A stretch of DNA of 64,000 bases from Gemmatimonadota bacterium. GTDB taxonomy: Bacteria; Gemmatimonadota; Gemmatimonadetes; Palauibacterales; Palauibacteraceae. Position 1 is the stretch's first letter. Every line of letters begins with the position of its first letter. The stretch covers positions 832,001-896,000 of the forward strand of contig OZ220691.1 of NCBI GenBank assembly GCA_965116475.1, written 5' to 3'. Positions 61,686 to 63,899 of the stretch are shown here, piece after piece. The notes below the pieces were generated by a model. It had not been told where the DNA came from, searched no databases, and worked only from the letters and a program-made list of their open reading frames with translations. The position numbers were made by a program, and so were the translations under genes.

Positions 61686-63899
61686 ATGAGGCGTGTGGAG
61701 TCGGCCGACCGGTCGGAGCGGGCGACGCTGGTCATCCTCGCCGCTGGGCGATCCACGCGGTTCGGTCGCGCCAAGCAGCTCGAACCGATGGGGCCGGGCG
61801 GCGCGTCGCTGCTCGAGTACGCGGTGTACGACGCCCTGCGCGCGGGCTTCGAGCGTTTCGTGCTCGTGGTGCGCGAGAGCCAGCGCGACGAGTTCGAGGC
61901 GCGTCTGGCTCCACTGCGCGCGGCGGGGGTCTCTCTCTCCTTCGCTTGCCAGCGCCTGGTCCACCCCGACCTCGTCCCCCTCGCCCCACCCGGGCGCGTC
62001 CGGCCCTGGGGCACGGGATTCGCCGTGTTGGCCGCGGCGACGGCCCTGACCCATCGCGGCGCGTTTGCCGTCTGTAACGCGGACGACTTCTACGGGCGGG
62101 TCGCGTACGAGCGCCTGGCGCACGCGCTCGCGACGCCTCCCTCGGGTATCCGCGCCTTCGCGGTGACCTCCCCCTTGACCCACACCCTGTCGGCCTTTGG
62201 AGGCGTGTCGCGCGGCCTTTGCGAAGCGGGGCCCGACGGCACACTCCTCCGGATGACGGAAGGCCTGGATCTGCGCCTCGACGGCGACGCGCCCGGGGAC
62301 GCTGCGCGGACGGGCGAAGGAGCCGAGCCCTCGGCCGGCCGCCCCTGCGTCGTCGGGCACACTCCCGCCGGCGCAGCGGTCCGGGTGGACGCGGACAGCC
62401 AGGTGTGCATGGGTCTGTGGGGATTCTTCCCCGACATCCTGCCCCTGCTGGAGGAACGCTTCCGGGATTTCGTCGCTGCCTCCCCGGGGACCGAGGACGA
62501 GTTCTACCTGTCGGAGACCATCGGCGATCTTGCGGCCGCCGAACGGACGCGCTGCGGCCTGGTGCCCGCGGGCCCGGGATGGATGGGCGTCACTTTCCCC
62601 GGAGACCGCGAGGGCGTCGCCGTGTCGCTTCGGCAACTGACCGAGGCCGGCGCCTATCCCGTCGATCTCTGGACGCCGCACGTTCACGCGAAGCCGGTCC
62701 GCGCGGCTCAGGCGTCGCTCTTCAGTCCGCCGCAGGCGCCGCCGAGTGGGGTGGCGACCGCTCCAGGGCGCATCAACCTGATCGGCGAGCACATCGACTA
62801 CAACGGCCTGCCGGTGCTGCCGATGGCTCTCGACCGACACGTCCGGCTGGATTTCGAGGCGCTGCGGTACTCGACGGTCGAACTCGAAGGCGATTCCGCC
62901 CACGGTTCGTTCGCCTTCCGGCTGGACCGCACCACAGAATCCGCACCCCGGGGCCACTGGTCGAACTACGTGAGGGCCGCGGCCAGGGGATTGCTCGACC
63001 ACGGCGTGGAACTGAAGCGAGGCATCAGGGGAACGGTCACGGGCACCGTGCCGGTGGCGGAGGGGCTGTCGTCCTCTTCCGCCCTTGTAGTGGCGTCCGC
63101 GCTGGCCCTGTTACACGCGAACGAAGCGGACGTAGAGGCCCTGGAACTGGCGGCGCTTCTCGCCCGGGCCGAGCGTTATGTCGGCGTGCAGGGCGGCGGG
63201 ATGGACCAGGCCGCGTCGCTCTGCGGAAAGGAAGGGCACGCGCTGCGGATCGACTTCGGACCGCTGCGCGTGACACCCGTGCCGGTGCCGGAGGGGTGGC
63301 GCTGGGTCGTCGCCTCGTCGTTGACGCGCGCCGAGAAGGCGGGAGCGGTCCGCGAGTTGTACAACGAGCGGCGGGCCCAGTGCGCGGAGGCCCTCGAACG
63401 GGTGGGTCAGGCTTCCTGGCTGGAGGTCGTGGAAGCCGGCCGGGCCGAGTTCGAATCCATCCTGGCCGGGGCACAGAGGTCGCTGCCGCTCACGTTGTGG
63501 AGGCGCTTTCGCCACGTGGCCACCGAGGGTCGCCGGGTGATCGAGGCCGAGCGCGCGCTTCGCGACGGCAACATGGCGGCCTTCGGCCGGCTGATGAACG
63601 CATCGCACGCCAGCCTGCGCGATGACTTCGGCGTGAGCACGCAGGCGCTGGACGAGATCGTGGGCGTGGCCCTCGAGGCGGGGGCGGCCGGCGCGCGGCT
63701 CACGGGCGCGGGATTCGGCGGCTGCGTGGTCGCGCTCTGCCCCGCGAACGAGGCGAAGGGCGTGATCGAAGCCCTGCTCGATCGCTTCTACGCCCCCCGA
63801 GGAGGGGTCGACCGCCGTGCCCTCTTCGTCGCCGACGCCGCCGACGGCGCCACCGTAACGAGCGGTGGGCCGTTGGCCGTCTCGACAGGCGATAGCTAG
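61686..63899 (+). CDS. Bifunctional sugar-1-phosphate nucleotidyltransferase / galactokinase-family (GHMP) kinase
   Basis: N-half LAAGRSTRFG..KQLEP, PWGTG, NADDFYG, GVSRG, WMGVTF; C-half APGRINLIGEHIDY, GLSSSSA, GGMDQ, GARLTGAGFGGC; one ORF. Confidence 0.9.
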   Translation: MRRVESADRSERATLVILAAGRSTRFGRAKQLEPMGPGGASLLEYAVYDALRAGFERFVLVVRESQRDEFEARLAPLRAAGVSLSFACQRLVHPDLVPLAPPGRVRPWGTGFAVLAAATALTHRGAFAVCNADDFYGRVAYERLAHALATPPSGIRAFAVTSPLTHTLSAFGGVSRGLCEAGPDGTLLRMTEGLDLRLDGDAPGDAARTGEGAEPSAGRPCVVGHTPAGAAVRVDADSQVCMGLWGFFPDILPLLEERFRDFVAASPGTEDEFYLSETIGDLAAAERTRCGLVPAGPGWMGVTFPGDREGVAVSLRQLTEAGAYPVDLWTPHVHAKPVRAAQASLFSPPQAPPSGVATAPGRINLIGEHIDYNGLPVLPMALDRHVRLDFEALRYSTVELEGDSAHGSFAFRLDRTTESAPRGHWSNYVRAAARGLLDHGVELKRGIRGTVTGTVPVAEGLSSSSALVVASALALLHANEADVEALELAALLARAERYVGVQGGGMDQAASLCGKEGHALRIDFGPLRVTPVPVPEGWRWVVASSLTRAEKAGAVRELYNERRAQCAEALERVGQASWLEVVEAGRAEFESILAGAQRSLPLTLWRRFRHVATEGRRVIEAERALRDGNMAAFGRLMNASHASLRDDFGVSTQALDEIVGVALEAGAAGARLTGAGFGGCVVALCPANEAKGVIEALLDRFYAPRGGVDRRALFVADAADGATVTSGGPLAVSTGDS

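Follow-up and report, generated by a model that had tools for sequence, protein, structure and literature searches.

The 737-amino-acid open reading frame described here, located in a 64,000-nucleotide window of a Gemmatimonadota genome, joins a sugar-1-phosphate nucleotidyltransferase (NTase) to a GHMP sugar kinase, and its product is predicted, with a probability of roughly 0.8, to be a bifunctional sugar-salvage enzyme taking a free sugar to its 1-phosphate and then to a nucleotide sugar, most likely a UDP-sugar. In the proposed scheme, the C-terminal kinase would transfer a phosphate from ATP to the anomeric (C1) hydroxyl of a hexose of galacto configuration, and the N-terminal NTase would condense the product with an NTP, UTP being the likeliest, to form the nucleotide sugar and pyrophosphate. 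The fusion probably arose in one marine Gemmatimonadota genus (g1) from a module of NTase, sodium:solute symporter and kinase genes that relatives keep; the symporter is no longer present in this genus, where the fused gene ends an operon for two GH63-like hydrolases together with an ABC importer of oligosaccharides (Table 1). This position suggests that the cell probably imports a glycoside and frees the substrate from it internally.

Table 1 Features of the fused gene and of the importer/hydrolase cluster that precedes it.
Feature	Position	Strand	Evidence and remarks
Second MGH1/GH63-like hydrolase, first gene of the cluster	52443..54785	+	PF22422, 151.9 bits; true start probably later
ABC transporter ATPase, MalK/UgpC type	54554..55915	+	ABC_tran, TOBE_2; true start probably later
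Family-1 extracellular solute-binding protein	55543..57231	+	SBP_bac_8, SBP_bac_1; true start probably later
ABC sugar transporter permease 1	57960..59009	+	PF00528 at residues 845-1037 of the open frame 55860..59009; start approximate
ABC sugar transporter permease 2	59002..59823	+	PF00528; 95% identical and syntenic in genome G058
GH63/MGH1-like six-hairpin glycoside hydrolase	59825..61675	+	PF22422, 153.8 bits
Fusion open reading frame, 737 aa	61686..63899	+	NTase domain and GHMP sugar-1-kinase domain
N-terminal sugar-1-phosphate nucleotidyltransferase domain, residues 1-335	61686..62690	+	3pnn-like family
Short linker and C-terminal GHMP anomeric sugar kinase domain, residues 336-737	62691..63899	+	GALK2-like subfamily

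The fused gene and its neighbourhood

The first-pass annotation of this DNA had proposed that a single frame unites a complete NTase with a GHMP kinase, and both domains proved to be full. Pfam detected NTP_transf_3 and NTP_transferase at residues 16-176, followed in the kinase half by GalKase_gal_bdg (353-386), GHMP_kinases_N (427-515) and GHMP_kinases_C (623-702), all matches exceeding the curated cut-offs. The first residue of the kinase signature is 353 (nucleotide 62742), not far from the start near 62760 estimated earlier, and the two quoted strings, GEHIDY and ERYVGVQGGGMDQAASLCG..HAL, are both present in the translation. The ATG of the fusion lies 10 nucleotides past the stop codon of the upstream hydrolase gene; a search for a terminator downstream of the fusion found none.

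The best solved relatives of the adjacent hydrolase are TTHA0978 and E. coli YgjK, and in genome G058 this hydrolase also adjoins the fusion. The same genome holds the first hydrolase of the cluster (84% identical and syntenic) and permease 1 (94% identity over 349 amino acids). Compared with the PDB, the solute-binding protein matched oligosaccharide binders of mixed specificity, giving no hint of the substrate. The link between the GH63/ABC operon and the fused gene is genus-specific: a tie to the NTase/kinase module beyond the genus was considered and rejected, the orthologues of the hydrolases in family f6 (73-85% identity) lying far off. A DUF5107-TPR gene was likewise rejected as a conserved partner, since it adjoins only in genus g1; the ESM Atlas returned 'DUF5107' and nothing further for it.

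The kinase half and its candidate sugars

The kinase half passed the TIGR00131 galactokinase equivalog (256.5 bits, cut-off 226.65) and scored 217-235 bits against the species-level equivalogs NF003472, NF003006, NF003705 and NF001816, far under their cut-offs of 385-509. With its PF10509, PF00288 and PF08544 matches, it is assigned by these profiles to the galactokinase family of GHMP kinases, and the ESM Atlas gave 'galactokinase family' only. The motifs APGRxNLIGEHxDY, GLSSS, GGGMDQ, YNxR and TGAGFGGC are conserved with respect to E. coli GalK and eight relatives. Within APGRxNLIGEHxDY the residues R, E, H and D match E. coli GalK, as do both ATP motifs, the Asp in GGGMDQ and the Tyr in YNxR; the galactose-binding signature, GLSSS (motif II), TGAGFGGC (motif III), the catalytic Asp and the Arg of APGR are invariant in 14 NTase-linked kinases.

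The placement within this family was made from subfamily profile scores against PDB sequences. The best solved chain for the fusion was the human GalNAc kinase GALK2 (2a2c, 192.9 bits), ahead of L. lactis GalK (161.7) and human GALK1 (about 159). A profile of the NTase-linked kinases gave 327 bits for GALK2, 260 for Gal1, 253 for GALK1 and 242 for L. lactis GalK, whereas a control profile built from the classical GalKs of the phylum showed the opposite preference (GALK1 419, GALK2 257). The fusion reads GEHIDY and GGGMDQ where a classical Leloir GalK has GEHTDY and CGIMDQ. By these measures the kinase half does not fit the classical Leloir type (E. coli, L. lactis, GALK1) and is placed in a paralogue group whose closest characterised member is GALK2, in agreement with the earlier suggestion of a GALK2-like rather than an E. 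coli GalK-like enzyme.

We put N-acetylgalactosamine (GalNAc) or another N-acetylhexosamine (HexNAc) slightly ahead of galactose as the sugar on these profile comparisons, as a tentative first choice that falls just short of even odds. Galactose is a less probable but realistic candidate. In that case a true galactokinase and a UDP-hexose pyrophosphorylase would take galactose through Gal-1-P to UDP-Gal, and a GalE-like epimerase would carry this on to UDP-Glc, serving catabolism or glycan synthesis as an Isselbacher/USP-type bypass of the Leloir transferase. Galactose is kept in play by the passed TIGR00131 threshold together with the Tyr of YNxR, a pocket residue shared with GalK and replaced by Phe in GALK2. 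The gene content of the genome also fits: no galT is present in the window, as previously noted, and neither a class I nor a class II galT was found anywhere in the genome (3.62 Mb, 96% complete; search controls positive in E. coli, B. subtilis and other species); a search for a second galactokinase-family match in the genome found none besides the fusion kinase; and the genome holds a GalE-like gene at a distance of 43 kb from the fusion. So do the adjoining GH63-like hydrolases, YgjK being among their nearest solved relatives and Glc-alpha-1,2-Gal its best known substrate, and so does genome G049, in which a homologue of the first hydrolase adjoins a classical GalK. Against galactose, however, the subfamily profile scores GALK2 68-85 bits higher than any solved galactokinase, with the control reversed; outside the phylum this NTase family usually pairs with a NahK-like HexNAc kinase rather than with a GalK (see below); and genomes such as G049 and G112 hold both a classical GalK and an NTase-linked kinase, suggesting different jobs for the two. 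The classical GalKs of the phylum sit in galT-galK-galM or galT-galE-galK clusters. The first-pass annotation had described a route from Gal or GalNAc through the sugar-1-phosphate to the UDP-sugar that bypasses GalT; the pathway logic and the absence of galT stand, but the term 'bypass' presumes galactose, which is not favoured over GalNAc or another HexNAc.

Counting against a HexNAc substrate is the resemblance of the neighbouring hydrolases to GH63 enzymes of the alpha-glucosidase type, a type not known for releasing HexNAc.

The nucleotidyltransferase half

The N-terminal half belongs to the sugar-1-phosphate nucleotidyltransferase superfamily, within a family represented by PDB 3pnn, a free-standing 303-amino-acid chain from Porphyromonas gingivalis W83 that is described as a 'conserved domain protein' in an entry titled glycosyltransferase. 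Residues 12-328 of the fusion align with residues 5-302 of this chain (E 1.6e-50, 35% identity), that is, with nearly all of it, indicating that the domain is complete. An NTase profile matched 3pnn at E 1.3e-101 and next the GalU-type UDP-glucose pyrophosphorylases at E 3e-7; with these enzymes as the nearest solved sequences after 3pnn, UTP is the most likely nucleotide. The AF2 model of the domain (pLDDT 86.7) gave in Foldseek a TM of 0.79/0.88 with 3pnn over the whole domain, followed by RmlA and a UDP-glucose pyrophosphorylase (TM about 0.6). A search of the literature found no paper that mentions 3PNN together with nucleotidyltransferase.

An alternative is that the kinase works alone, passing the sugar-1-phosphate to another enzyme, with the NTase as an appendage that is degenerate or has a structural or regulatory role. 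The weak scores of the N-terminal domain against the generic Pfam NTase models (38.6 and 23.1 bits) could be taken in this sense, and so could the glucuronokinase/putative pyrophosphorylase GKUP of zebrafish and Xenopus, whose pyrophosphorylase half was without detectable activity in vitro (PMC3938481), a warning that conserved motifs are no guarantee of activity. The N-terminal domain is nevertheless full-length, its confident model adopts the NTase fold, and free-standing NTase orthologues are retained beside the kinase across the class. The nucleotide-binding loop LAAGRSTRFGRAKQL with the following Lys and the acidic metal-binding residues are all present, and K30, Q31, R104, P107-W108-G109-T110, N131, D133 and D134 are invariant in 27 of 27 aligned NTases (fused and free-standing homologues, 39-85% identity), in which the stretches LAAGxSTRFG..KQL, RPWGTG and NADDFYG show little or no variation. 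An inactive NTase domain, raised by the first-pass annotation as a result that would count against it, is accordingly not indicated by motifs or model, from which activity is predicted, and we regard the appendage explanation as improbable.

Integrity and origin of the fusion

The gene is fused in 16 of the 19 sampled genomes of genus g1 (14 with both halves listed in one frame, two judged from frame length alone), and the fusion recurs in about 38 clusters of proteins (90% identity level); the inspection for NTase and GalK-type fusions covered the best 150 of 21,787 representatives. The junction at nucleotide 62690 is spanned without indels by contigs of four runs from four studies (X1 to X4): the X1 contig is identical to the fusion and possibly comes from the source sample, X3 is an RNA library, and the X4 contig covers nearly the whole gene (61500-63863). 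The fusion is thereby confirmed as real, with both domains complete. An artefact in this genome only (two genes merged by assembly error, frameshift or lost stop) could appeal to the two separate genes of relatives outside the genus and to a G+C content of about 71%, at which long spurious open frames are common, but it is made very improbable by the recurrence of the fusion, the gap-free junctions and a translation that retains neither a symporter gene nor an intergenic spacer between the halves.

Among the sampled Gemmatimonadota the fusion is confined to this one genus. A distance of 1.8-2.1 kb separates the NTase gene from the closest kinase orthologue in 12 of the genomes sampled from families f3 and f6, and the gene in between is a sodium:solute symporter of the SSF family in both loci scanned with Pfam. 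A GH63-like hydrolase as the intervening gene was rejected, neither hydrolase having matched there in the seven loci fetched. Two separate genes look like the ancestral state. The first-pass annotation had held that separate genes in relatives would speak against a fusion; relatives do carry two genes, and yet the g1 fusion is real. The protein P0291 joins the same type of kinase to a different NTase family (PF00483) and is probably a second, independent fusion; on whether the two fusion clades had one origin or two, a quick tree gave a trichotomy.

Similar pairs in other phyla

NTases of the 3pnn-like family were found at no fewer than 597 loci, in Bacteroidota, Verrucomicrobiota (including Akkermansia), Planctomycetota, Acidobacteriota, Bacillota and other phyla. 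At 26 of the best 80 such loci outside the phylum, a gene for a NahK-like kinase starts 0-274 nucleotides after the NTase gene; the kinase of one such pair, from Jejuia, matches B. longum NahK at E 5e-65, and four of these loci also carry a symporter 43-61% identical to that of the Gemmatimonadota. The split module, P0291 and the NTase-NahK pairs thus offer three sources of independent support for a predicted coupling of kinase and NTase.

The 3pnn-like NTases could be the missing HexNAc-1-phosphate (GalNAc-1-P) uridylyltransferases of bacterial GalNAc/HexNAc salvage, paralleling human GALK2-AGX1, an idea that we offer with some reserve. The kinase step would then fall to a NahK-like APH kinase in most phyla and to a GALK2-like GHMP kinase in Gemmatimonadota, in a non-orthologous displacement, suggesting bacteria that run the same salvage with interchangeable kinases. 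If true, this would fill the undefined step after the formation of GalNAc-1-P by BT4240-type kinases in gut Bacteroides. BT4240 makes GalNAc-1-P with an approximately 275-fold preference for GalNAc (PMC11992087). The main text of a 2025 study of GalNAc metabolism in B. thetaiotaomicron contains the terms UDP-GalNAc, uridyl and nucleotidyl zero times each and leaves the fate of GalNAc-1-P open. Together, the fusion, the NTase-symporter-kinase module and the NTase-NahK pairs suggest a function, open to testing, for an NTase family with a solved crystal structure and no assigned role.

Comparison with known systems

The nearest known design is FKP of Bacteroides fragilis (FKGP in plants), an L-fucokinase/GDP-L-fucose pyrophosphorylase with an N-terminal NTase and a C-terminal GHMP kinase (PMC11982464, PMC6468028, PMC11267548). 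Both FKP and, as predicted, the fusion perform a two-step salvage from free sugar to nucleotide sugar on one chain, with the same domain order. No FKP chain was present among the 28 PDB sequences matching the fusion at E <= 0.01, which argues for an independent origin; the fusion would work like FKP, yet appears to be no homologue of it beyond the superfamily level. Its kinase is of galactokinase/GALK2 type and not a fucokinase, its NTase is of 3pnn type, with GalU-like nearest relatives, and not a GDP-fucose pyrophosphorylase, and its 737 amino acids make it shorter than FKP (949 amino acids).

GKUP of zebrafish and other lower animals also has a bacterial-type NTase (about 260 amino acids) N-terminal to a GHMP sugar-1-kinase, the NTase being a separate protein in bacteria; it differs from the fusion in being eukaryotic and in having a kinase specific for glucuronate, and its pyrophosphorylase activity could not be demonstrated (PMC3938481). 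In the human GALK2 and AGX1/UAP1 system, which contributes the closest solved relative of the fusion kinase, as in the NahK (B. longum) and BT4240 (B. thetaiotaomicron) systems, the proteins are separate, unlike in the fusion. AGX1 belongs to another NTase family. In other phyla, NahK-type kinases fill the kinase position beside 3pnn-like NTases; both NahK and BT4240 have the APH fold and are unrelated to the GHMP kinase of the fusion.

A literature search for the NTase/GalK-type domain pair found FKP, GKUP and engineered chimeras only, and a paper on the genomics of Palauibacterales has no mention of galactose, galactokinase or Leloir. The earlier view that the domain pair had not been characterised holds for the pair itself, which was not found in print, but overstated the novelty: the architecture type was known already from FKP and zebrafish GKUP, and only the particular combination of domains appears to be undescribed.

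If its activities are confirmed, the fusion would be a natural single-chain catalyst leading from free sugar to UDP-sugar, of the kind that glycan chemists now build by hand (NahK/GlmU and GalK/GPUT chimeras). According to a report on such man-made kinase and uridylyltransferase chains (ScGalK-ScGPUT, NahK/GlmU), a natural bifunctional enzyme converting xylose to UDP-xylose has yet to be described, and the order with the pyrophosphorylase at the N-terminus performed better; natural GalK-type fusions are not discussed in its available part (PMC11267548). These chimeras are synthetic and come from other parent families, and their better order is the natural order of the fusion.

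The fusion gene and its two domains

The G+C content of the window is about 71% throughout. The first-pass annotation had proposed that one ORF joins a nucleotidyltransferase (NTase) to a GHMP sugar kinase, and database searches bear this out: Pfam domains above curated cut-offs cover residues 16-176 (NTP_transf_3 and NTP_transferase) and residues 353-386, 427-515 and 623-702 (three galactokinase/GHMP domains); the NCBIfam galactokinase equivalog TIGR00131 scores 256.5 bits (cut-off 226.65); and, among chains of solved structure, 3pnn, a free-standing P. gingivalis W83 protein of 303 aa, is matched end to end by residues 12-328 (E 1.6e-50). 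The suggested likeness of the kinase to human GalNAc kinase (GALK2) also held, since its top solved match is GALK2 (2a2c, 192.9 bits), ahead of L. lactis GalK (161.7 bits) and human galactokinase GALK1 (about 159 bits).

Coordinates of the fusion gene, its neighbours and related flavobacterial clusters (C1, contig of the window's own genome; L, fetched loci; other coordinates are those of the window).
Feature	Position	Strand or direction	Remark
GH63/MGH1-like hydrolase	52443-54785	co-directional with fusion	gene 1 of cluster
ABC ATPase			gene 2 of cluster
Solute-binding protein			gene 3 of cluster
Two permeases			genes 4-5 of cluster
Second GH63/MGH1-like hydrolase	59825-61675		gene 6 of cluster
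Fusion ORF, 737 aa	61686..63899	+	ATG 10 nt past TAG of upstream gene
DUF5107-TPR protein, 1045 aa	C1:896361-899495 (L011:1361-4495)		about 460 nt past fusion stop, just outside window
Flavobacterial 3pnn-like NTase clusters	L051:4801-12406 and L070:4804-11288		Jejuia, Polaribacter

Reality and distribution of the fusion

The fusion of a predicted anomeric sugar kinase with a predicted sugar-1-phosphate nucleotidyltransferase is real, natural and restricted to the genus of the window (g1). A search of 5.8 billion proteins listed about 38 clusters of full-length fusions, of which about 36 were 70-89% identical and named, if at all, 'galactokinase' of Gemmatimonadota or Candidatus Palauibacter; two (P0037, P0038) were 800-aa forms with 45-47% identity. 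The remaining listed proteins were free-standing kinases (405-479 aa, 50-68% identity). Among 401 sampled Gemmatimonadota genomes, the fusion was found in 16 of the 19 from g1 (both halves listed in one open frame in 14, G100 among them; G152 and G392 counted from open-frame length alone), and none was seen in the 382 genomes outside g1. The module is split in two g1 genomes (G260, G298), a third (G211) gave no match, and in G240 a TGA lies within the kinase match. The junction, near nucleotide 62690, was crossed without indel by contigs of four sequencing runs from four studies: one identical to the window and possibly from its source sample (X1); one of 679 nt (X2); one of 364 nt from an RNA library, where DNA carry-over is possible (X3); and a single contig spanning nearly the whole gene, 61500-63863 (X4). 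Runs X2-X4 are labelled sponge metagenomes, and their contigs come from relatives other than the window's strain. An assembly or sequencing artefact was therefore rejected.

In an exhaustive HMMER search of 1.84 billion cluster representatives, 21,787 matched; among the best 150, both domains were covered only by P0019 (the Palauibacter cluster) and P0038. The 658-aa protein P0291 is a different fusion, in which a classical PF00483 NTase (104.6 bits) runs directly into a GALK2-like kinase of the type found here, which shares 51% identity with the query. P0291 is a second, independent fusion; the first glycine-rich loop seems to be missing from its N-terminus, and the gene call may be truncated.

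An N-terminal pyrophosphorylase followed by a C-terminal GHMP sugar-1-kinase is described for zebrafish GKUP (PMC3938481) and Bacteroides FKP (PMC11982464), and engineered GalK/uridylyltransferase and NahK/GlmU chimeras are reported in PMC11267548. The architecture type is thus already known, and the pair of a GalK/GALK2-type kinase with an NTase was not found described as a natural fusion in the literature searched, which excluded most subscription journals. FKP shares domain order and predicted working mode with our fusion but is built from other families; it was absent among the sequence relatives matched to solved structures, indicating an independent fusion of other families.

The nucleotidyltransferase half and its family in other phyla

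Both halves of the fusion look active from their sequences. When 27 N-domains, some fused and some free-standing (39-85% identity), are aligned, K30, Q31, R104, P107-W108-G109-T110, N131, D133, D134 and further positions are invariant, and the LAAGxSTRFG loop is nearly so. Foldseek with an AlphaFold2 model of the N-domain (pLDDT 86.7, pTM 0.87) returned 3pnn first (TM 0.79/0.88), followed at TM of about 0.55-0.62 by RmlA thymidylyltransferases, UDP-glucose pyrophosphorylase and inositol-1-P cytidylyltransferase. The family profile likewise ranked 3pnn first (E 1.3e-101), with GalU-type UDP-glucose pyrophosphorylases next (E 3e-7 to 1e-5), a weak lead to UTP as the possible nucleotide. No GlmU or GalU was found above curated cut-offs in the window's own 96%-complete genome; the top match of both models (loci L009, L010, L116) was one 333-aa NTase ORF at C1:2571265-2572188 (75 bits glmU, 47 bits galU).

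The NTase family occupies at least 597 loci in many phyla (scan of 185,579 species genomes), and no function for 3pnn-like proteins was found in the literature searched, most subscription journals lying outside its reach. The main value of the fusion is the evidence it offers on the function of this widespread uncharacterised family, and for a HexNAc-1-phosphate salvage route that bacteria may possess. Of the 80 best loci, two, both in Gemmatimonadota, have a GalK-like kinase within 6 kb of the NTase; in 26, an APH-family kinase gene starts 0-274 nt past the NTase gene, and four of these 26 (L054, L084, L093, L094) also encode a symporter that shares 43-61% identity with its Gemmatimonadota counterpart. 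The Jejuia APH-family kinase matches B. longum N-acetylhexosamine 1-kinase (NahK) across its whole length (E 5e-65). The Jejuia and Polaribacter clusters encode, in this order, a LacI regulator, the NTase, the NahK-like kinase, an MFS transporter and a NagB-like/PIG-L deacetylase fusion protein, with a GFO/IDH/MocA-type oxidoreductase between the last two in Jejuia. By predicted gene content this is an amino-sugar context, and it looks like an undescribed HexNAc salvage or catabolic locus. The simplest reading is that the anomeric kinase would have been swapped by non-orthologous displacement within one salvage module. According to the available text of PMC11992087, B. thetaiotaomicron BT4240 is a characterised NahK-like kinase with a preference of about 275-fold for GalNAc that makes the 1-phosphate; the fate of this product is worded there only as 'downstream metabolism', and UDP-GalNAc, uridyl and nucleotidyl are absent from the main text.

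The kinase half and its candidate sugars

The kinase half is 33% identical to E. coli GalK and shares with it APGRxNLIGEHxDY, GLSSS, the Asp of xGxMDQ, Tyr-Asn-x-Arg and TGxGFGGC, which we take, from the GalK literature, to be sugar-binding, catalytic and ATP-binding residues. Both motif strings quoted in the first-pass annotation are present in the translation, and the contrast it drew separates two paralogue groups: GEHIDY/GGGMDQ marks the NTase-linked kinases, GEHTDY/CGIMDQ the classical ones. Two of the latter lie in the clusters galT-galK-galM (G075) and galT-galE-galK (G106). The G075 products (L110:6518-9803, window's family) share 62%, 58% and 40% identity with their E. coli counterparts, values unusually high for the phylum that may reflect horizontal transfer.

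GalNAc/HexNAc would be the leading candidate substrate (probability about 0.45), pointed to by the GALK2-leaning kinase profile and the NahK-like partners of the NTase family elsewhere. A profile of 14 NTase-linked kinases scored GALK2 at 327.3 bits, yeast Gal1 at 259.6, GALK1 at about 253 and L. lactis GalK at 242, whereas a control profile built from eight of the phylum's classical GalKs favoured GALK1 (about 419 bits) and L. lactis GalK (353) over GALK2 (just 257). Galactose, against which both this profile contrast and the prevalence of NahK-like/APH kinases rather than GalK beside the NTase in other phyla (best 80 loci) argue, nevertheless stays a credible second candidate: the kinase exceeds the galactokinase cut-off and keeps a Tyr where GALK2 has Phe; the fusion is the sole galactokinase-family gene of a genome in which the search for galT, extended beyond the window, found none; and its neighbours are GH63-like hydrolases, one of which has a homologue beside a classical GalK in G049. 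The weight on GalNAc/HexNAc was held down by these points. Some other sugar is less likely still.

Origin of the fusion and genomic context

Of the 151 genomes sampled across the phylum, 44 carry the N-domain family and 116 a GalK-like kinase of any kind; the latter count includes one unpublished genome, G057, and no conclusion drawn here depends on it. In 12 genomes of families f3 and f6 (G123, G124, G071, G133, G141, G079, G149, G063, G023, G109, G112, G142), the NTase gene is 1.8-2.1 kb from the closest kinase orthologue (46-62% identity in these families), both genes appearing broken in G142; in other genomes the distance is 3-13 kb or the genes lie on separate contigs. The gene between the halves encodes a sodium:solute symporter (two loci scanned against Pfam; same position by tblastn in L021, L035, L106 and L107), indicating an ancestral unit in the order NTase, symporter, kinase. 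The window's genus no longer has the symporter there, and its two enzymes form one chain. A GH63-like hydrolase as the intervening gene was ruled out, neither hydrolase being there in seven fetched loci. A quick maximum-likelihood tree of the kinase domain resolved a main fusion clade (14 rows, support 100), a P0037/P0038/G255 fusion clade (support 100) and a free-standing f6-type clade (support 96); these form a trichotomy, compatible with one origin of the fusion or more.

The fusion comes seventh in a cluster of co-directional genes, and G058 keeps the whole order. The linkage of GH63 and ABC genes to the fusion is genus-specific: in f6, the second hydrolase has orthologues (73-85% identity) at sites distant from the NTase-symporter-kinase module. 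We infer that, in place of free-sugar uptake, the genus may have come to import a glycoside and liberate the sugar from it. Between g1 and three f6 genomes (G124, G079, G141), the second hydrolase is 84-85% identical and the kinase and NTase just 50-63%, which may reflect a recent transfer of the hydrolase/ABC cluster from one lineage to another. DUF5107 genes adjoin the fusion only in g1. Besides the window's genome, G058, G082 and G100 have the DUF5107-TPR gene next to the fusion; in G255, whose fusion is divergent, the gene sits 2.3 kb upstream of it, and in other families the two are not linked. In E. coli, the first gene of a sugar ABC-transporter/aldose-epimerase operon encodes YphG, which carries a DUF5107 annotation.

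Positions 44737-51650, which precede the sugar cluster, encode a 1103-aa sortilin/BNR (Asp-box) repeat protein and an 867-aa leucine-rich-repeat protein, with a 321-aa ORF between them. Beside the divergent fusion of G255, L105:3427-10395 encodes a 1232-aa helicase-like protein (HTH, SNF2/ResIII, NOV_C) and a 1046-aa protein carrying DUF1156 at its N-terminus, a possible defence or mobile island that might explain the rearranged context there.
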